Of a stretch of 64,000 nt of DNA, positions 5,613 to 47,006 are shown one piece after another; positions within the stretch are counted from its first letter, which is position 1, and every line of letters starts with the position of its first letter. Both the position numbers and the translations under genes were made by a program. The notes under the pieces were generated by a model. It saw only the letters and a program-made list of their open reading frames with translations. It had not been told where the DNA came from and searched no databases. The stretch covers positions 196,941-260,940 of the forward strand of contig CALMAY010000037.1 of NCBI GenBank assembly GCA_937861125.1, in the 5' to 3' direction. The DNA comes from an uncultured bacterium (lineage in GTDB: Bacteria > Patescibacteriota > Patescibacteriia > Magasanikbacterales > UBA922).

Positions 5613-5664
5613 TTACTAACTAACTAACTAACTAACTAACTTGTGAACTTACTAACTGTCTAAC
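5613..5664. repeat. Tetranucleotide (TAAC)n / 8-bp periodic array
   Basis: ttac taac taac taac taac taac taac ttgtgaac ttactaac tgtctaac, lying between the folA stop and the tmk start. Confidence 0.85.
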
Positions 5665-6130
5665 TTCTTTCATACCTCACAAACGCAAATCCATCATGAT
5701 CATCTCGTGACACTTCCTTCCACACACTTAAATCAATCTTTGGAAAAAACGCGTCACCATCTACTGTTTGGTTGATATGTGTAATTTCAAGTGCATCCGC
5801 TTGATCAATCGTCTGTTTGTACAATTCCGCGCCGCCGATAATGAAAACATCTTCATTGTGTAATTGTGCAAACGCATCTTCTGTTGAAGAAAAAGTTAGG
5901 ACATTATCTGGTACGACGTAGTCAGTCTGTCGTGTGATCACAACATTTTGTCGATTGGGGAGTGGGCGAAACTTTTCTGGTAGTGACTCCCATGTTTTGC
6001 GACCCATCACTACTGTTTTGTGTGTGGTGAGTTCTTTGAAATGCTTGAGATCCTCTGGGATATGCCAAGGCAGTGTACCGTTGTGACCGATACAGTTATT
6101 TTGGGCGATGCCTGCGATGAGGGTAATCAT
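5660..6130 (-). CDS. folA: Dihydrofolate reductase
   Basis: MITLIAGIAQNNCIGHNGTLPWHIPEDLKHFKELTTHKTVVMGRKTWESLP is the canonical DHFR N-terminus. Confidence 0.9.
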   Translation of the reverse strand: MITLIAGIAQNNCIGHNGTLPWHIPEDLKHFKELTTHKTVVMGRKTWESLPEKFRPLPNRQNVVITRQTDYVVPDNVLTFSSTEDAFAQLHNEDVFIIGGAELYKQTIDQADALEITHINQTVDGDAFFPKIDLSVWKEVSRDDHDGFAFVRYERS

Positions 6131-17502: not shown

Positions 17503-18408
17503 TTAGATACTTGGTGCGATGAAACTGTTTGGGTCAAAAATGTTTACGAGTGGAAAAAATTCAATGGTTTCAACCTGGCCCAAAGAAGAGAGAAAACGAA
17601 TATCAAACGTTCTCGCTTCATCTGAGAGGAAACGATCGATTGTGATAGGTCTGATACCTGTCAATGTATTGCTGGTATAGATAGCGATATATCCATTGAC
17701 TTGGTAGAAGCTATAGGCGCTTTTATTGTGGAGTGTAAACAAAAGGCGATCGGTCGGTCCAGAGAGTCCACCTGCGGGGATATGGGAGACATCTGTTGTT
17801 TCGATATGAAGGCGTTCTTTGGTGTATGATGGGACGTCAAAGATGGTGTGCGGAGAGATGCGCTGCCATTTCGTAGAGAGGATGCGAAATGATGGTTTAT
17901 TTGGATATATATTTGTACTCAATCCAAGTTCGGCTGCAAGCTGTTTTTGTCCTGGGAGAATTGCAATAGTTTTGGTGGGGGTTGTCGTGTTGCTGAGTGC
18001 GTATGTAAATGTGACAAAGGCAATATGGCGCGTGTTTGGGTTGGTGATTGTTGATACTAGGTCATATGTGTCGTCTGCACTGACAACGACTGTGGGAGCT
18101 GATATGTTGAGTGGTTTGGTACTATAGAATGTTTGTGTGTTTGTTTGTGTGAGTGATGCTTGTTCTGCAAGTAGTTTTTTGTCCTGCCAATATCCAAGAA
18201 TAGCATATTCTGCCCAACGATAGGTACTATATCCAACACTAATAATGCACCAAAGTACGAGGGAAAATGTACCAATACTGACAAATGTCTCCTTGTGTTT
18301 AAGAAGCCAAACAGAGATGGCAAGTTGCTTGTTTGACAAATCACCGTCTGTTGGTTGATACAGCGTTGATGGATCGGTTGGTTTTTTGCCAAAGAAATTC
18401 ATAGTCAA
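17503..18408 (-). CDS. Hypothetical membrane-anchored protein
   Basis: One TM segment near the N-terminus. Abuts ftsW with no gap. Confidence 0.5.
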   Translation of the reverse strand: MTMNFFGKKPTDPSTLYQPTDGDLSNKQLAISVWLLKHKETFVSIGTFSLVLWCIISVGYSTYRWAEYAILGYWQDKKLLAEQASLTQTNTQTFYSTKPLNISAPTVVVSADDTYDLVSTITNPNTRHIAFVTFTYALSNTTTPTKTIAILPGQKQLAAELGLSTNIYPNKPSFRILSTKWQRISPHTIFDVPSYTKERLHIETTDVSHIPAGGLSGPTDRLLFTLHNKSAYSFYQVNGYIAIYTSNTLTGIRPITIDRFLSDEARTFDIRFLSSLGQVETIEFFPLVNIFDPNSFIAPSI

Positions 18409-21527: not shown

Positions 21528-21604
21528 ATTTTTTACTCAAAATATTACACTTTTTTTCTAAAAATAGCCAGTTTTGGGTATTAATCAGATATTAAAGTAG
21601 CCTC

Positions 21605-21633
21605 TTGACTTTCTCACCCAAAAGGTGTATAGT
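21605..21633 (+). promoter_or_regulatory. Promoter upstream of secE (TTGACT-17-TATAGT)
   Basis: ttgact ttctcacccaaaaggtg tatagt, followed at 21646-21665 by the hairpin cggcc-gcg-ggccg plus T5. Confidence 0.55.
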
Positions 21634-21677
21634 ATCTCTGTAATTCGGCCGCGGGCCGTTTTTAAGTACCAATCATT

Positions 21678-21765
21678 TTAAGGCGTAATAGGCTTAAAAA
21701 GCTCAAAAAGCTCACAAAATAGCCTCTTAAGCATCATAAGCCTTTTAAGCCTCTTAAGCTTTATA
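21678..21765. repeat. 9-bp periodic array pair: 4 reverse units (NNNAGGCTT type, 21678-21713) and 5 forward units AGCCTNNTA (21721-21765), ending 4 nt before the secE ATG
   Basis: agcctctta|agcatcata|agcctttta|agcctctta|agctttata|ctgt|ATG. Confidence 0.85.
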
Positions 21766-21769
21766 CTGT

Positions 21770-21961
21770 ATGAACCTCGTTCAATCTCTTAGTACCTACT
21801 TCCGTGGTGCACTCGAAGAAGTCCGCAAAGTCTCTTGGCCTACCCAAAAACAGGTCACTGTCTACTCAGCGATCGTGATTGGTCTCTCTGTTGGTATGGC
21901 GATTTTCTTTGGCGCACTCGACTACGTTCTCAACTTGGGACTTACTGAAATACTCAAATAA
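21770..21961 (+). CDS. secE: Preprotein translocase subunit SecE
   Basis: 63 aa. EEVRKVSWPTQKQV followed by a single TM segment. Precedes nusG. Confidence 0.85.
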   Translation: MNLVQSLSTYFRGALEEVRKVSWPTQKQVTVYSAIVIGLSVGMAIFFGALDYVLNLGLTEILK

Positions 21962-21963
21962 GT

Positions 21964-22008
21964 AGCCTTTTAAGCATTTTAAGCCTTGTAAGCCTCCTAA
22001 GCCTTTCA
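21964..22008 (+). repeat. 5 x 9-bp AGCCTNNTA array filling the secE-nusG spacer, ending 5 nt before the nusG ATG
   Basis: agcctttta|agcatttta|agccttgta|agcctccta|agcctttca|acact|ATG. Confidence 0.85.
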
Positions 22009-22013
22009 ACACT

Positions 22014-22559
22014 ATGGCAAAACAAACCCTCAACCTCGGACGTCGCTGGTATGTGCTCCACACCTACAGTGGCTACGAGGAAAATGTCAAACGCAATCTC
22101 GAACAGCGTATCGATACCTTTGAAATGCAGGAAAAGATTTTTAATGTATTGGTACCAAAAGAAAAGAAAATTAAAATCAAAAATGGAAAACGCCAGACGA
22201 TTGAGGAAAAGATTTTCCCTGGATATGTGCTCGTGGAGATGATTGTAACTGATGACTCATGGTACGTCGTACGCAATACTCCAAATGTGACTGGATTTAT
22301 CGGCTCAGGTACCACACCAACTCCGATTGATCAAAAAGAGGTAGATTCACTGATGAAACGTGTCGCAGTCGAGCAACCAACACATACGTTGGATGTCGCA
22401 GTCAATGATGCGGTACGAATTGTCGATGGACCGTTCAAGAACTTTGAAGGAAAAGTCAGTGCAGCTGATGCGACTCGTGGCAAGGTGAAAGTCATGGTCA
22501 ATATGTTTGGTCGTGAAACTCCAGTTGAGCTCGATGCGCTCCAAGTACAAAAAATCTAA
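22014..22559 (+). CDS. nusG: Transcription termination/antitermination factor NusG
   Basis: RWYVLHTYSGYEENVKRNLEQRI ... KOW region GKVKVMVNMFGRETPVEL. Confidence 0.9.
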   Translation: MAKQTLNLGRRWYVLHTYSGYEENVKRNLEQRIDTFEMQEKIFNVLVPKEKKIKIKNGKRQTIEEKIFPGYVLVEMIVTDDSWYVVRNTPNVTGFIGSGTTPTPIDQKEVDSLMKRVAVEQPTHTLDVAVNDAVRIVDGPFKNFEGKVSAADATRGKVKVMVNMFGRETPVELDALQVQKI

Positions 22560-22675
22560 ATAGGCTCTAGGGCCTATGATGTATACAACACATGTGGTCT
22601 CCCGCAGGGAGACGCTTCTCACACTCGTGTTGCCTATATCACACGCCTTATAAGTCTCATTAACGTTACATGTAT

Positions 22676-23101
22676 ATGGCTAAAAAGCTTATTACACAAG
22701 TCAAACTTCAGATTCAGGGTGGCGCTGCAAACCCAGCACCTCCAGTTGGTCCAGCACTTGGTCAACATGGTCTCAACATCGCAGGATTCTGTAAAGAATT
22801 CAACGATCGTACCGCAGATCGCAAAGGTGAAGTCGTGCCAGTGGTTATCAACGTGTATGAAGATCGTACCTACGATTTCATCATGAAGGTGGCTCCAGCA
22901 TCTGAGCTTATCAAACAAGCGCTCAAGATCAAAAGTGGCGCACACAACCCTCTCAAAGAGAAGGTCGGGACACTCACCAAAGCACAGCTTCGTGAGATCG
23001 CTATCAAAAAAATGCCAGACCTCAATACGACCAATGTCGAAGCGGCAATGAAAACAATTGCAGGAAGTGCTCGTCAGATGGGTGTGAAAGTGGAAGCATA
23101 A
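22676..23101 (+). CDS. rplK: 50S ribosomal protein L11
   Basis: [35 protein letters not shown]. Confidence 0.92.
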
Positions 23102-23135: not shown

Positions 23136-23162
23136 AAAACTCGCCCTTTTGGGCGAGTTTTG
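23136..23162 (+). terminator. Terminator after rplK (ctcgccc-tttt-gggcgag-TTTT)
   Basis: Perfect 7-bp stem and a T-run. Confidence 0.75.
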
Positions 23163-23169
23163 GTATACT
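23161..23169 (+). promoter_or_regulatory. Extended -10 element TGGTATACT, 8 nt upstream of the ldh ATG
   Basis: tggtatact atgtgtat ATG. The same 9-mer recurs at 35811, 54554 and 56943 (tggtatagt at 28688). Confidence 0.5.
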
Positions 23170-23177
23170 ATGTGTAT

Positions 23178-24119
23178 ATGAATATTTTTTCTTCACATAA
23201 AAAATCTACATCTCGCTCTAAAGTCGCTATCATTGGTGCAGGTGCAGTCGGCTCCACCGTCGCATATACCGCAACGATCAAAAATATTGCTGCAGAGATT
23301 GTGTTGATTGATAAAGATACACCAAAAGAAGAGGGGAATGTGATGGATATTGATGATGGGTTGTGTTTTGTCGAGACTGGGTGTATCAAGGGGGCGGATA
23401 TGAGAGCTGCGTCGGACGCTGATGTGATCGTTATTACCGCGGGAGCCGCACAAAAACCAGGAGAGACACGACTGGATCTGGTACAAAAAAATACTGCTAT
23501 TTTCAAATCAATATTCAAAAGTATTGGCAAGATAAAAAAGAGTGCAATTATTATTGTGGTGAGCAATCCAGTCGATGTACTCACACATGTCGCACAACAA
23601 GCATCTGGTTTACCAGTCAATCAAGTGTTTGGTACTGGTACAGCACTTGATACGTCACGTCTCAAGACACAGCTTGGACATGCGTTTGGCATCAACACCA
23701 AAAATATTCATGGCTATGTGATGGGTGAACACGGAGATAGTGAGTTTGTGGCGTGGAGTACGGTATCTATCGGTGGTGTACCGATCAATAAAATTCCTGG
23801 ATTTACCACTACTGTCGCCAAAGATATTGAAGAGTCTGTTCGACGTGAGGCATACGAAATTATCAATAAAAAAGGGGCAACATATTTTGGTATTGCACAG
23901 GTGGTGACAAATATTCTCAAAGCAATTATTTTTGATCAGCATATTATTGTCCCTGTTTCGACGTGTGTACAAAAGTACCATGGTGTATCGGGTGTTTGTA
24001 TTGGGGTACCAGCTGTGATCGGTCAGTATGGGGTAGAAAAAATTTGGACGACAGAATTGTCTGCTGTAGAAAAAAAGAAGTTTCAGAAGTCAGCAGAAGT
24101 TATTCGCTCATATTTGTAA
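23178..24119 (+). CDS. ldh: L-lactate dehydrogenase
   Basis: KVAIIGAGAVGST, ITAGAAQKPGETRLDL (Gln at the LDH/MDH discriminating position) and GEHGDSEF. Confidence 0.85.
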   Translation: MNIFSSHKKSTSRSKVAIIGAGAVGSTVAYTATIKNIAAEIVLIDKDTPKEEGNVMDIDDGLCFVETGCIKGADMRAASDADVIVITAGAAQKPGETRLDLVQKNTAIFKSIFKSIGKIKKSAIIIVVSNPVDVLTHVAQQASGLPVNQVFGTGTALDTSRLKTQLGHAFGINTKNIHGYVMGEHGDSEFVAWSTVSIGGVPINKIPGFTTTVAKDIEESVRREAYEIINKKGATYFGIAQVVTNILKAIIFDQHIIVPVSTCVQKYHGVSGVCIGVPAVIGQYGVEKIWTTELSAVEKKKFQKSAEVIRSYL

Positions 24120-28015: not shown

Positions 28016-28019
28016 ACTT

Positions 28020-28126
28020 TTTAAGGCTTAACAGGCTTAAGAGGCTTAGAATGCTTACAAGGCTTTTCCACTTCATTTGGTAGCCTCCTAAGCCTTGTAA
28101 GCTTGCTGAGCTTACTAAGTCTTCAC
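28020..28126. repeat. Divergent pair of 5 x 9-bp AGCCTNNTA arrays (minus-oriented at 28020-28065, ending 4 nt before the prfA ATG; plus-oriented at 28082-28126)
   Basis: Minus strand: agccttgta|agcattcta|agcctctta|agcctgtta|agccttaaa|aagt|ATG. Plus strand: agcctccta|agccttgta|agcttgctg|agcttacta|agtcttcac. Confidence 0.85.
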
Positions 28127-31255: not shown

Positions 31256-31421
31256 CGCACCGACAATTAACTGTTGACTGGTAACTATTAACCGTTGACA
31301 CTCTATACACTCTCGTTGCACAGAGCGTAAGCGGTCGTCATGGGTGTGAATGTTAATTGTTAAAAGTCAATTATTAATTGTTTTTTTACGGCCTTTGTGC
31401 CGATATTTTGAAGTAGTATTT

Positions 31422-33455
31422 ATGTTTTTTCATTCAAACAAGCCAAAGCCTGTAGCACCACGTGTGCCTACTGTGCCACCGCAACGTGCGCAGCAATATA
31501 CAGCACGTCCACGTCCAGCGCAGAATACTCAGTCGTATACACAAAATCAGGTACGACGTCATACGCTACCACCGGTACCGCCTATTCCAACGAGAAAACC
31601 ATCACCAGTAGCTGCTATCCCTACTACATCAATAGCGCAGAATCATCTGCGTACCAGTAGTGCATCACAACAATCACGTCGTTCATCATTTGGTGGTCGT
31701 CCACGTGCCAAGGTAACAGCACCATTTCGTGCTGAGCACAACCAGCCAAAACGTCCTGAGGTAGTCGCCTCAGTGCCAGTCGCTGGAGGACCGCTCGCCT
31801 TGCGTATTATTCCACTTGGTGGATGCGAAGAGGTGGGTCGTAATATGACTGTCTTTGAATATGGCAATGATATTGTTATTCTTGATATGGGTGTGCAGTT
31901 TCCAGAGGAAGATATGCCTGGAATTGATTATATCGTTCCAAACACCAAGTATCTCGAAGGAAAAGAAAAAAATATTCGTGCTGTTATCTTTAGTCATGGA
32001 CACCTTGATCACATTGGTGCAGCCCCAATCTTGCTTGAAAAACTGGGTAACCCAATGATTGTTGGTCGTGATTTGACGTTGGCAATGATCAAGCACAAAG
32101 TAGAGGATTATAAAAAAGGTACGAGCAAAAAACTCAAAACTGTACGTATCAACAGTATTGATCAGGTGATGACATTTGGCGCAATCAAGATTTCGTATTT
32201 TCAAGTCGAACACTCAATCATGGATGCGGTGGGTGTGACAGTGGAAACTCCATCAGGAAGTGCGATTCATCCAGGAGACTGGACACTTGAGCGTGATGCC
32301 AACGGCAAATCAACACTTGATTATACACACTTGCGCAACGTCACAAAACCATCAGTACTCATGCTTGAGAGTCTGGGGGTGCTCCACGACAAACGTGGTG
32401 TGAGTTATCAGGAGATGTATGATTCGCTCCAAGACATTTTGCGCAAAGCGCCTGGGCGTGTCATTATTGGTACCTTTAGTTCTCAAATCGAGCGTATCAA
32501 GTGGGTGATCGAAGCCGCACAGAGACTCAATAAAAAAGTCTTTCTTGATGGATACTCAATGAAAAACAATATCGAGATTGCCAAAGAGCTTGGGTATATA
32601 AAAATTGATAAAGGAGTGCTCGTGGATATCAAAGATGTCAATAAATATGACGACAAACAAATCGTTGTGCTTTGTACTGGCGCACAAGGTGAAGAAAATG
32701 CAGTGCTTTCACGTATTGTCAATGGTGAACATCGTACATTACGTTTGATCAAAAATGACACAGTAGTATTTTCATCCTCTGTCATTCCTGGAAACGAGCG
32801 CACGATTCAGCGTCTCAAAGACAACATGTATCGTCAATGTGATAATGTGATTCACGGACAAGTGATGGATGTGCACGTCTCTGGTCATGCAACCAAAACA
32901 GATATTTTGGAGGTGATACAGATGGTACAACCGACATACTTTATGCCGGTGTACGCTAACCATTTCATGCTCAAAGAGACAGAAAAATTGGCACGCAACA
33001 ATGGATTTGATCCAAGCAAGATTATCGTGCCAGACAATGGGACTGTTGTAGAAGTGTTGCCAAATGGTGCCAAGGTGCTTGATAAAAAAGTACCGACTGA
33101 TTATGTTTTTGTCGATGGACTCGGAGTGTCAGATACACAGCATCTCGTATTACGTGATCGTCAGCTCCTCGCTGAAGAGGGAATGGTGGTGGTGATTGTG
33201 ACAGTGAATCATCGCACTGGTGCACTGGTACAGAATCCAGATATTATCTCTCGTGGATTTGTCTTTCTCAAGGACAACAAGAAATTGATTGAGGATATGC
33301 GTCACAAAGTCTCTGAGATGGTGATTCAATCAAACCCAGCGACATGGGCAGATGTCAACATTATCAAAAACAATATTCGCGACAAGATAGGCCAGTATGT
33401 TTACACAAAGACGGAGAAACGTCCGATGATCTTGCCAGTAGTTATCGAAGTGTAA
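31422..33455 (+). CDS. rnj: Ribonuclease J with a roughly 125-aa Pro/Gln/Arg-rich N-terminal extension
   Basis: RIIPLGGCEEVGRNMTVFEYGNDIVILDMG...FSHGHLDHIGA (metallo-beta-lactamase/beta-CASP). Confidence 0.85.
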   Translation: MFFHSNKPKPVAPRVPTVPPQRAQQYTARPRPAQNTQSYTQNQVRRHTLPPVPPIPTRKPSPVAAIPTTSIAQNHLRTSSASQQSRRSSFGGRPRAKVTAPFRAEHNQPKRPEVVASVPVAGGPLALRIIPLGGCEEVGRNMTVFEYGNDIVILDMGVQFPEEDMPGIDYIVPNTKYLEGKEKNIRAVIFSHGHLDHIGAAPILLEKLGNPMIVGRDLTLAMIKHKVEDYKKGTSKKLKTVRINSIDQVMTFGAIKISYFQVEHSIMDAVGVTVETPSGSAIHPGDWTLERDANGKSTLDYTHLRNVTKPSVLMLESLGVLHDKRGVSYQEMYDSLQDILRKAPGRVIIGTFSSQIERIKWVIEAAQRLNKKVFLDGYSMKNNIEIAKELGYIKIDKGVLVDIKDVNKYDDKQIVVLCTGAQGEENAVLSRIVNGEHRTLRLIKNDTVVFSSSVIPGNERTIQRLKDNMYRQCDNVIHGQVMDVHVSGHATKTDILEVIQMVQPTYFMPVYANHFMLKETEKLARNNGFDPSKIIVPDNGTVVEVLPNGAKVLDKKVPTDYVFVDGLGVSDTQHLVLRDRQLLAEEGMVVVIVTVNHRTGALVQNPDIISRGFVFLKDNKKLIEDMRHKVSEMVIQSNPATWADVNIIKNNIRDKIGQYVYTKTEKRPMILPVVIEV

Positions 33456-38656: not shown

Positions 38657-38696
38657 TTTCTTATTTTTTATTTTTTGTGTTATACTAGTTGTCACT

Positions 38697-39821
38697 ATGA
38701 CACCCAGACATATCGAGACACGTGTACCCACACAGCCAGTACGCGTTTACAAAATACTTGCAATTACATTTCTCACTATTACTGTGATTCTTCTTGCGGT
38801 GATTGGGTTTATGTCTTCCAAGCGTGCGACGATTACCATCACGACCAAAGAAACTCCGGTGGAGACCAATGTTCGTGTCGCACTCTCTGACGTAAATGGA
38901 AGTATTTCAACGGTCACTACTACTCAAACACAAACATTTTTTGTTACTGGGGGTGCTGAAGTCCCTGGTAAGGCTACAGGAATGATGCGAATTTACAATA
39001 CCTCTGCTACTGCGCAGCCATTGGTAGCCACGACACGTTTTCTTTCAACTGGTAATGTTCTCTTTCGTCTCAAAGCAGGAGTAGTGGTTCCTGCAAATGG
39101 ATTTATTGATGCAGAAGTAGCTGCTGACAAAGAAGGAAAAGAAGGAAACATTGGTCCAGATTCTTTTACTATTCCAGGACTTGATGCTGTGAGACAAAAA
39201 GAGGTGTATGGGAAAACAGAAAGTGTAATGCAGGGTGGTATTCGTACGCAAGGGGTGGTGTCACAAAAAGATCTTGATGTTGCTCAGGCAACACTTGAAC
39301 AAAAGATATTGGATACCGCAGCAACATTGTTTACAGATTTGGTAAGTACGAGTACAAACGCGTTATATTCAGTACATAACACACAGTTTAGTACCGGGGT
39401 AAAAGTAGGAGATACGGTTAGTGAGTTTGGTGGCTCTCTTACGGCTGATGTTACTCGTGTGTACTATGATGCGTCTATGATACAAAGTAAAGCCACGGAA
39501 TCGCTCTATGAACGTGTGGTAGATGATGCAGAACATATTGATTTGGGGAGTGCGGAGCCTGTTGTTACAATAGGGTCACTCACAACTGAGCCAAAGACAA
39601 CTGAACTTTCTGTAGTACTCTCAGGTGTAGCGACACTCAATCCAGATAGTCCGAAACTTGAAAAATCAGTATTTTTTGGTAAAACAAAAGATGAAATTCG
39701 TCGCTATGTCCTCACGATGGATCATGTCCATGGAGTAGATATACATTTTTCTCCAGCGTGGATGCAGACAGTACCACATGTGGCAGATCATGTAGATGTG
39801 GTGATTAAGGAAGTGAAATAA
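38697..39821 (+). CDS. Hypothetical N-terminally membrane-anchored protein
   Basis: One TM segment (ILAITFLTITVILLAVIGF) followed by a beta-rich region. Confidence 0.5.
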   Translation: MTPRHIETRVPTQPVRVYKILAITFLTITVILLAVIGFMSSKRATITITTKETPVETNVRVALSDVNGSISTVTTTQTQTFFVTGGAEVPGKATGMMRIYNTSATAQPLVATTRFLSTGNVLFRLKAGVVVPANGFIDAEVAADKEGKEGNIGPDSFTIPGLDAVRQKEVYGKTESVMQGGIRTQGVVSQKDLDVAQATLEQKILDTAATLFTDLVSTSTNALYSVHNTQFSTGVKVGDTVSEFGGSLTADVTRVYYDASMIQSKATESLYERVVDDAEHIDLGSAEPVVTIGSLTTEPKTTELSVVLSGVATLNPDSPKLEKSVFFGKTKDEIRRYVLTMDHVHGVDIHFSPAWMQTVPHVADHVDVVIKEVK

Positions 39822-41233: not shown

Positions 41234-41289
41234 ATTTACTAGTTCATAGCCAGTAGTTCGAAGCCAATAGGAATTATATATTTAGTTTT

Positions 41290-41313
41290 AATCTCAATCT
41301 CAATCTTAATCTT
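41290..41313 (+). repeat. Hexanucleotide array AATCTY x4, 7 nt upstream of the thrS ATG
   Basis: aatctc aatctc aatctt aatctt. Confidence 0.8.
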
Positions 41314-46039: not shown

Positions 46040-46068
46040 TTGTATCTATTGCTGCTTTTTCGTATACT
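46040..46068 (+). promoter_or_regulatory. miaA promoter (TTGTAT-17-TATACT), with the -10 ending 8 nt before the ATG
   Basis: ttgtat ctattgctgctttttcg tatact atggtcgt ATG. Confidence 0.45.
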
Positions 46069-46076
46069 ATGGTCGT

Positions 46077-47006
46077 ATGATTCAAAATGTACCAAAATTG
46101 ATTGTCCTGTGTGGTCCGACTGGGAGTGGAAAAACTGATCTTTCTCTTCGTTTGGCGAAACGATTTGGTGGTGCTATTGTTTCTGCTGATTCACGACAGC
46201 TCTACAAAGAGATGACGATAGGGACGGCCAAGCCTATCGGGAGGTGGCAGTGGCGAGGATTTCGTCGTGTGTACATAGTGGAAGGAATCGAGCATTACAA
46301 TCTTGATTGGTTGAGTCCAAAAAAGGTGTTTAGTGCTGCTGAGTTCAAGATGCGAGCACGCAAGTGGATCGGCCGTGTTTTGAAACAGAAACAAGTACCG
46401 TTTGTGGTCGGCGGAACTGGATTATATATTGATGCGTTGGTAGATAATTTGTCTTTCCCAAAAGTGGTAGCGAATCAGAAATTACGAGATGAGTTTTCTC
46501 AGAAATCTTTGGAAGAGCTTTTGACTCAATTGAATGAAGTTGACCCAGAAGCCGGAGCAATGATTGATCGAAACAATCCTCGTCGTGTGATTCGTGCGCT
46601 TGAAGTGTCATTACTTTCTGGTACACCATTTTCTGCTCAGCGAATAAAAGGGGAAAAACTGTATGACGTGCTGTACTTAGGCGTTTCTGTGCCAAAAGAA
46701 GAGTTAGATCGTCGGTTAGATAGACGGATTGATATGATGATGGAGGGTTGCTTGGTAGAGGAGGTCAGAAAATTGGCGAAAAAATATCCGTTCAGTTTGC
46801 CAAGTATGAGTGGGATTGGATATAGAGAGTTTGAGGGGTTTGTAAAGGGAGAGGAAACATTGGAACAAGCGATCGTAAAACTCAAAACCGATACACGGCA
46901 GTATGCCAAGAGACAGATGACATGGTTCAAACGACGAAATGATATTGTGTGGTGTAAGGTGTATGAGGAGATGGAGGAGCGTGTCGCGGAGTTTTTGAAA
47001 AGGTGA
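46077..47006 (+). CDS. miaA: tRNA dimethylallyltransferase
   Basis: LIVLCGPTGSGKTDLSLRLAKRFGGAIVSADSRQLYKEMTIGTAKP. Confidence 0.9.
   Translation: MIQNVPKLIVLCGPTGSGKTDLSLRLAKRFGGAIVSADSRQLYKEMTIGTAKPIGRWQWRGFRRVYIVEGIEHYNLDWLSPKKVFSAAEFKMRARKWIGRVLKQKQVPFVVGGTGLYIDALVDNLSFPKVVANQKLRDEFSQKSLEELLTQLNEVDPEAGAMIDRNNPRRVIRALEVSLLSGTPFSAQRIKGEKLYDVLYLGVSVPKEELDRRLDRRIDMMMEGCLVEEVRKLAKKYPFSLPSMSGIGYREFEGFVKGEETLEQAIVKLKTDTRQYAKRQMTWFKRRNDIVWCKVYEEMEERVAEFLKR

Follow-up and report, generated by a model that had tools for sequence, protein, structure and literature searches.

The genes secE, nusG and prfA of an uncultured bacterium are each preceded, a few nucleotides before the start codon, by a tandem array of five imperfect 9-nt units. 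The genes lie within a 64,000-nucleotide stretch of contig CALMAY010000037.1 (assembly GCA_937861125.1; the whole stretch is called the window here), whose host is, judged by its sequence, a member of the Magasanikbacteria clade of the Candidate Phyla Radiation (CPR). The arrays are probably an RNA-level element that acts at translation initiation, because their geometry is fixed relative to the ATG, they occupy intercistronic sites, they are oriented towards the gene and they are under apparent purifying selection. The more specific reading that is ranked first, tentatively, is an mRNA leader that would recruit and position the ribosome independently of a Shine-Dalgarno (SD) site, read by a putative factor. 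No description of these arrays was found in the searchable literature. Rfam gave no hit at E ≤ 1 in 21530-22700, and only a tRNA at the gathering threshold in the whole window.

The original prediction had placed five-unit arrays 4-5 nt before the ATGs of secE and nusG and a third array of the same architecture before prfA. Direct reading of the sequence agrees with the coordinates of the first two, and the prfA array, on the minus strand, likewise has five units and a 4-nt gap (Table 1). The nusG array fills the spacer between secE and nusG. The unit consensus in the window is AGC[C/A/T]TNNTA. With at most one mismatch, AGCCTNNTAAGC occurs 16 times in the window, compared with 2.19 ± 1.5 in shuffled sequence (none of 100 shuffles equals that number), and every match is confined to the secE, nusG and prfA loci, where the program TRF finds the same period-9 arrays. 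AGCAT is unit 2 in all three window arrays, as had been pointed out earlier for secE and nusG, but AGCAT units are variably placed in relatives, and a special meaning of that position was rejected as not general. Nor are the arrays an N-terminal coding extension: those of secE and prfA contain an in-frame TAA, and the frame of the gap varies among loci. At secE and prfA a reverse-oriented arm stands immediately upstream of the forward array, with no open reading frame (ORF) after the prfA arm on the plus strand. The reverse units earlier described as one half of a ‘divergent pair’ at secE are present, but the arrangement is better termed an imperfect palindromic module.

The same arrays recur in related genomes. 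A pattern scan with AGCNTNNTAAGCNTNNTAAGCNTNNTAAGC over one genome per species (GTDB) gave at least 117 loci; among the matches listed, 15 loci are from Magasanikbacteria and 2 from other Patescibacteria. Most matches outside the CPR are perfect 9-bp microsatellites and were rejected as unrelated. The units of the CPR arrays are heterogeneous, not perfect copies, and stand directly before start codons. Three records titled ‘Gammaproteobacteria’ (L051, L052 and L072) contain a Magasanikbacteria-like secE-nusG-rplK cluster; they are probably mislabelled CPR bins, because their NusG is 77-80% identical to that of the window. L047 and L073 carry the same arrays. A scan of viral contigs returned mostly perfect microsatellites and coding repeats, a few imperfect repeats, and none with the start-adjacent architecture.

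The geometry is defined by at least 29 start-adjacent arrays from about 20 related genomes, among the matches listed. Five units are present in 18/29 and four in 6/29, the distance from the array end to the ATG is 1-5 nt in 23/29, and the base at -1 is T in 28/29. A 9-nt phase can accordingly be seen in the base composition from -50 to -5 across the 29 arrays, and the last UAAGC core falls at about -15 to -11. In a set of 147 units, positions 1-3, 5, 8 and 9 are conserved at 80-98%, and positions 4, 6 and 7 are variable. Solo start-adjacent arrays, a set chosen for having a downstream ATG, point towards it in 9/9 cases. Arrays with no ORF next to them are mostly reverse arms paired with a forward array; only about 2 of some 45 arrays are neither start-adjacent nor a reverse arm.

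Many of the genes led by arrays belong to the translation and transcription apparatus (rpsL, rpsG, fusA, rplK, prfA, nusG, trmD, era, rlmH, queA, aspS and cysS); others are gyrB, ftsW, xerC/D and genes for an M16 peptidase and an EamA transporter. In the conserved operons secE-nusG and rpsL-rpsG-fusA the arrays lie between cistrons. Predicted promoters lie upstream of the arrays at a variable distance of about 30 to about 90 nt, and the arrays are not at a fixed distance from -35 or -10 boxes. A role as promoter or UP-like element, one of the functions proposed in the original prediction, is not supported: position is tied to the ATG and not to promoters.

Comparison of strains adds sequence-level constraint to this architecture. 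L162, a strain with about 90% nucleotide identity to the window, has the same five units before nusG with one substitution; across the 52 nt of the nusG spacer there is 1 difference, compared with 56 of 246 third codon positions (23%) in secE and nusG (binomial p about 2e-5). In the era module, 1 of 81 array nucleotides differs between L035 and L056, whose genomes are 83% identical over the region, and both arms are conserved. These counts indicate that the nusG and era arrays are under purifying selection. Related genomes thus bear out the proposal of a functional 5′ module rather than random simple sequence: the architecture recurs, including at orthologous nusG junctions, and selection is evident at two loci.

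Folding predictions separate the forward array from its partner. The solo nusG array has no significant structure (z score +0.42), the secE module forms an imperfect hairpin of -25.5 kcal/mol (z -3.3), and the arms of the prfA module pair at -36.1 kcal/mol (z -2.7). A partner arm is present for 20 of 27 start-adjacent arrays, and the two arms are about 75% complementary. In 19/27 the sense leader folds less stably than the antisense (mean difference +5.8 kcal/mol). Arm-arm mismatches comprise 64 A.C oppositions, compared with 28 G.U pairs, and complementarity is 89-96% at unit positions 2, 3, 5 and 8 and 55-73% at positions 1, 4, 6, 7 and 9. The A.C excess and weak compensation indicate that sense-RNA pairing has not been optimised in the forward arm, and these figures do not support a hairpin selected at the RNA level. 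The forward arm keeps UAAGC, whereas in the reverse arm the corresponding AA positions are degenerate (68-70%); the arms are thus under different constraints, which favours a strand-specific role of the forward arm as RNA. The reverse arm may be a 5′ stabiliser against RNase J, or a leftover of module copying.

The start context of the clade leaves little sign of SD-directed initiation. No GGAGG-like motif precedes secE, nusG, prfA or other genes of the window, which agrees with what had been noticed for secE and nusG. Among the 90 called genes of L159-L164, SD-like cores precede 11, equal to the background rate of 9%, and T stands at -1 in 77, making UAUG a clade-wide start context. A study in E. 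coli reportedly describes quadruplet pairing between initiator tRNA and transcript, which may bear on U(-1). Many window genes lack an SD and have a TATACT or TATAAT box that ends about 7-10 nt upstream of the ATG, which suggests that leaderless mRNAs are widespread in the organism. The -10-like hexamers in the last array unit are too close to the ATG, so a promoter inside the array for leaderless transcripts was rejected.

The 16S rRNA of the lineage is conventional at its 3′ end. A lineage-specific pattern, taken from a partial 16S gene on L113 (5′ part), was used in a metagenome scan (41 loci); all 34 of the 3′ ends recovered, from relatives and not from the host itself, read GGAUCACCUCCUUUCU(GGAG) with a CCUCCU tail, which argues against an altered anti-SD. 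L126 and L152 hold the canonical tail and a trmD array in the same loci. The tail can be written CACCUCCUUUCU, and it is the anti-SD strand that the arrays look like rather than the SD strand. Complementarity to 16S rRNA, which the original prediction had proposed to look for, was not found beyond chance: against the L126 16S, the RNAduplex pairing of the arrays is matched or bettered by a fraction of 0.23-0.55 of shuffled arrays. Unlike part of the Parcubacteria, some of which showed the anti-SD motif less often in a published survey (PMC9297842), the lineage examined here has kept its anti-SD intact.

In the favoured reading, the leader would work as follows: (i) about five phased 9-nt units, each a UAAGC core with a variable, mostly pyrimidine spacer, cover the region from about -50 to -5, the last of them stopping 1-5 nt short of a U(-1)AUG start, in a clade that would not use SD:anti-SD pairing; (ii) the single-stranded forward array would serve as a ribosome-binding platform; (iii) the 30S subunit would be recruited and positioned through a putative factor able to read the repeats in register, with a multi-domain ribosome-associated RNA-binding protein, for example bS1, as a candidate. 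We infer that the arrays are transcribed and that they enhance rather than repress initiation. Among the functions first suggested for them, a translation-related leader fits best, being ATG-fixed and intercistronic, whereas the promoter and 16S-pairing proposals do not hold. A wider version of the idea is possible but doubtful: the arrays would represent a second, non-SD ribosome-binding code that is modular, copyable and protein-mediated, that serves both leadered and internal cistrons, and that leaves the canonical anti-SD unused. Its reader would be a ribosome-associated multi-domain protein or some other putative trans factor.

Among known systems, the arrays are like an SD site in lying in cis, a few nt before the start codon, with the last core at about the same place. 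They differ in being pyrimidine-rich and not GGAGG-like, in lacking complementarity to the canonical 16S tail of relatives, and in extending over about 45 nt in five phased copies, in contrast with the single 4-9-nt site of SD. SD-independent enhancers are closer. Examples are omega of tobacco mosaic virus (three 8-nt direct repeats plus CAA repeats), epsilon of phage T7 and AU-rich S1-binding leaders, whose action is attributed to protein (S1) or ribosome capture and not to SD pairing. The arrays share with them short direct repeats next to the start, low self-structure in the solo arrays, and a place in the 5′ leader or intercistronic spacer directly before the start, where they are presumably transcribed. 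Unlike these enhancers, they have a specific UAAGC-N4 unit with fixed copy number and register to the ATG, occur chromosome-wide in one phylum, often have an inverted arm, and are known here from their sequence alone.

Several observations weigh against the ribosome-recruiting leader. AGC, T5 and TA were demanded by the search pattern, so part of the apparent conservation of the core comes from the search itself. Only about 5% of the window genes have an array. The hairpins of paired arms, at -25 to -57 kcal/mol, should sequester the proposed single-stranded platform. At these positions some relatives have repeats of another unit sequence, which weakens the case for one sequence-specific partner. 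The activating role is an inference from sequence. Two main points are left unexplained, namely why an inverted arm is so frequent and why the units differ in sister lineages.

Turnover is a further point on the same side. The whole secE palindromic module is missing from L162, L160, L161 and L052: L162 shares the promoter and the GC hairpin, after which comes a leader of 36 nt with roughly one reverse and one forward unit, and the secE leaders of L160, L161 and L052 are short. At the secE-nusG junction, arrays are found in the window, L162, L105, L052, L051 and L072; L160 has a single unit, L164 a palindromic array of a different unit, and L159, L161 and L163 none, the spacer in L159 and L161 being only 2-3 nt. 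The module is therefore dispensable at any one gene, the secE copy included. As presence differs at the secE leader and at the secE-nusG junction, the alignments indicate that copies of the module are conserved once present, yet gained and lost among lineages.

The rival that survives best, although unlikely, is a periodic RNA operator of the TRAP or HutP type, in which a ring- or filament-forming protein on phased UAAGC cores would block the start codon and co-regulate the genes. TRAP binds (G/U)AG repeats with 2-3-nt spacers and HutP binds UAG-N4 triplets, and such operators can overlap the ribosome-binding site. The arrays resemble these operators in their short conserved core, variable spacers, constant spacing and preferred copy number of five; they also abut the start codon, are under sequence-level purifying selection and lead a gene set rich in translation and transcription apparatus. 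Their period, however, is 9 rather than 5-7, at a copy number of about five, and they precede many unrelated housekeeping genes rather than one pathway; gyrB, ftsW, xerC/D, the M16 peptidase and the EamA transporter do not fit a single regulon. No candidate oligomeric protein turned up, no genome-wide search for one having been made. Arrays that come and go at orthologues in close relatives would be unusual for a regulon, and other unit sequences at the same places in sister lineages count against one operator protein. For these arrays we favour the ribosome-recruiting platform over a TRAP-like repressor operator.

Less probable is a module of the REPIN or miniature inverted-repeat transposable element type, copied between intergenic sites by recombination or an enzyme and tolerated with little or no function. 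Like REP, BIME, REPIN and Correia elements, the arrays include dispersed imperfect intergenic palindromes of about 90-100 nt, occur as doublets and singlets and vary between strains. In L011, near-identical 90-nt modules precede rpsL and rpsG. Presence or absence at secE between close strains, the many other short tandem or palindromic arrays in sister lineages, and arms that are not optimised for pairing in the sense RNA (the A.C excess) point the same way. Unlike those elements, the arrays consist of 9-nt tandem units at 1-5 nt from starts, are oriented with the gene and are under purifying selection, which is strong when set against synonymous sites; the modal length of five units and the uniform direction of the solo arrays (in the ATG-chosen set) are equally awkward for a tolerated insertion. 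The boundary of the secE insertion, compared with L162, shows no target-site duplication and no terminal (inverted) repeats, and no link to a RAYT or transposase turned up, although no search was aimed at transposases. REP elements are usually 3′ of genes, whereas a tandem array of any unit sequence lies just upstream of the start in 7/90 called genes and only downstream of the stop in 0/90.

Of equally low probability is a DNA operator array, on whose consecutive 9-bp sub-sites a small DNA-binding protein (for example of the ribbon-helix-helix class) would control transcription. The precedent is omega of pSM19035, which binds 7-bp heptads in direct or inverted orientation, with ParR at parC cited as a similar model; by this precedent a period unlike the helical repeat is no bar. 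The shared skeleton of the two arms (the highly complementary positions 2, 3, 5 and 8) and the conservation of both arms between L035 and L056 would suit such sites. The arrays are nevertheless downstream of predicted promoters or intercistronic, placed by the ATG and not by -35 or -10; solo start-adjacent arrays are all oriented towards the gene, and the contrast between a preserved UAAGC and a degenerate reverse arm again speaks for different constraints.

A stability or processing element, in which the hairpin shields the 5′ end from RNase J or forms an RNase III site that separates cistrons, is slightly less credible still. The hairpins have z scores of about -3, the prfA transcript is predicted to start at the hairpin base (from a promoter read by eye that the scan had missed), and RNase J is encoded in the window, which is relevant to the idea that 5′ hairpins shield leaders from 5′-exonucleolytic decay. 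Solo arrays without a hairpin (nusG, gyrB and others), however, share the geometry and are conserved, and arm complementarity is incomplete and biased towards A.C mismatches on the sense strand.

Direct pairing of the repeats with 16S rRNA, through an altered SD:anti-SD or another site, is largely refuted and very improbable: the genes lack SD motifs, the last core lies where an SD would, and GCCUUGU is complementary to ACAAGGC in the h44/h45 linker, but the canonical tails of relatives and the shuffling result argue against it, and in the established 16S structure the ACAAGGC site takes in one base of the h45 stem and belongs to the decoding-centre region. Of the other 16S sites considered, the conserved stretch GUUGAAAAAAGCUAAC just 3′ of h26 and the ACAAGGC linker, both were rejected as matching minority units only or lying in structured rRNA.

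Two further identities were discarded. The lambda boxA, CGCUCUUAA, resembles the unit GCCUCUUAA; the boxA-like sequences of rrn leaders in the lineage are of the (C)UUUAACAAUUUA or CAUUACAAUU type, unlike AGCCUYGUA, and a boxA or Nus site was rejected. Phase-variable simple sequence repeats (SSRs), as in contingency loci, are also short tandem repeats near gene starts, and secE does differ between strains (by the whole module). The arrays nevertheless have heterogeneous units and precede essential housekeeping genes, and the nusG array, five units in both the window and L162 with one substitution, is stable between diverged strains.

Coordinates of the arrays and of the features around them are collected in Table 1. 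The predicted secE-nusG promoter is of strong sigma-70 type and is followed within about 10 nt by a hairpin and U run (GSCCNNGGSC GUUUUUAAA); both are common to L159-L163, L051, L052 and L072, and the stem bases covary. The hairpin, which matches no Rfam family, resembles a terminator or attenuator, or else a 5′ stem-loop. It stands outside the repeat module, which is inserted downstream of it. At the rplK junction the window has at most a decayed array, whereas arrays or palindromic modules are clear in L052, L051 and L072.

Table 1. Arrays, genes and other features in the window, with arrays of other unit sequence in relatives
Feature	Position	Strand	Details
secE forward array, five units	21721-21765	+	AGCCTCTTA AGCATCATA AGCCTTTTA AGCCTCTTA AGCTTTATA; then ctgt (21766-21769), ATG 21770
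nusG forward solo array, five units	21964-22008	+	AGCCTTTTA AGCATTTTA AGCCTTGTA AGCCTCCTA AGCCTTTCA; then acact, ATG 22014
prfA forward array, five units	28064-28020	-	AGCCTTGTA AGCATTCTA AGCCTCTTA AGCCTGTTA AGCCTTAAA; then aagt (28016-28019), ATG 28015-28013
secE module, reverse-oriented arm, about 4 units	21678-21713	-	minus strand: AGCTTTTTG AGCTTTTTA AGCCTATTA CGCCTTAAA
prfA module, reverse-oriented arm	28082-28126	+	plus strand: AGCCTCCTA AGCCTTGTA AGCTTGCTG AGCTTACTA AGTCTTCAC
Possible decayed array before rplK	22644-22675	+	CGCCTTATA AGTCTCATT AACGTTACA, tgtat, ATG 22676; weak
secE, 63 aa	21770-21961	+	ORF; orthologues with Pfam SecE
nusG, 181 aa	22014-22559	+	81-88% identity with Candidatus Magasanikbacteria proteins named NusG
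prfA, 359 aa	26936-28015	-	ORF; name taken from the original prediction, not checked by search
Predicted sigma-70 promoter, secE-nusG transcript	21605-21633	+	TTGACT-17-TATAGT; 10/12 matches in consensus scan
GC hairpin and U run, secE 5′ leader	21646-21665	+	CGGCCGCGGGCCG TTTTT; terminator-like match
RNase J	31350-33455		encoded in the window
TATACT/TATAAT boxes, examples	38675-38699, 46058-46079, 23160-23180, 18390-18408 (minus)		
Array of other unit before thrS	41288-41313		thrS ATG 41321
Array of other unit before tmk	5615-5641 (also given as 5615-5665)	-	gene ends 5611
Arrays of other units in relatives	L159 6111-6146, 9732-9806, 19144-19183; L160 11001-11037, 14701-14732		

Other tandem arrays, with units of 6-9 nt and different sequence, also precede ATGs in the window and in relatives. 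Their units are AATCTC, AGTT, ACTTTATA, AGTCCGT, AAAAGCT, ACCGAAG, ATCCGTAC and GGGTCA-type, and inverted partners accompany some of them. Placing arrays next to start codons may be a wider habit of the clade, with the AGCCT family as one instance.

Further features were seen beside the array loci. In the 116-nt nusG-rplK spacer, a hairpin at 22598-22616 has compensatory changes between the window and L162 (ggtctcccgcagggagacg vs ggtctctcaaaagagacg), and the spacer is nearly identical outside it; it may be a structured leader of the L11 operon without an Rfam match. Some relatives have an extra gene between nusG and rplK, encoding a protein of the 23S_rRNA_IVP family in L160 (10593-10955) and a PDDEXK_3 nuclease-like protein in L164 (3784-4167). 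Upstream of the era module, a non-coding, ORF-free stretch of about 100 nt (L035 3050-3147 / L056 4274-4371) is nearly invariant and may be an unannotated small RNA or terminator; on the opposite strand the era locus reads as an array and then a U run. The Magasanikbacteria gyrB of L021 (4718-7999) contains an intein, with an Intein_splicing domain between GyrB and Toprim.

At the rRNA loci, trmD is a conserved neighbour upstream of the 16S gene. The rrn leaders (L113, L118, L126 and others), 100-330 nt upstream of 16S, have in common a long stem (GGAAAGAAAAAAGAG ... CUCUUUUUUCUUUC) that is conserved, the boxA-like element CUUUAACAAUUUA and a AAUGUGACAAAGA box. The 34 16S genes (L119-L158) read CACCUCCUUUCUGGAG before diverging, and the conserved GGAG after the 16S tail could pair with CUCC of the anti-SD, a possible self-sequestration.

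Across much of the bacterial tree, the CPR among it, it is still an open question how start codons are found in the absence of SD pairing. An element with a defined sequence, fixed geometry, phylum-wide conservation, purifying selection and the position of a ribosome-binding site gives a concrete experimental handle on it, and could improve the annotation of start sites and operons in CPR genomes. If the enhancer reading is true, the arrays would also be a portable, SD-independent translation part.

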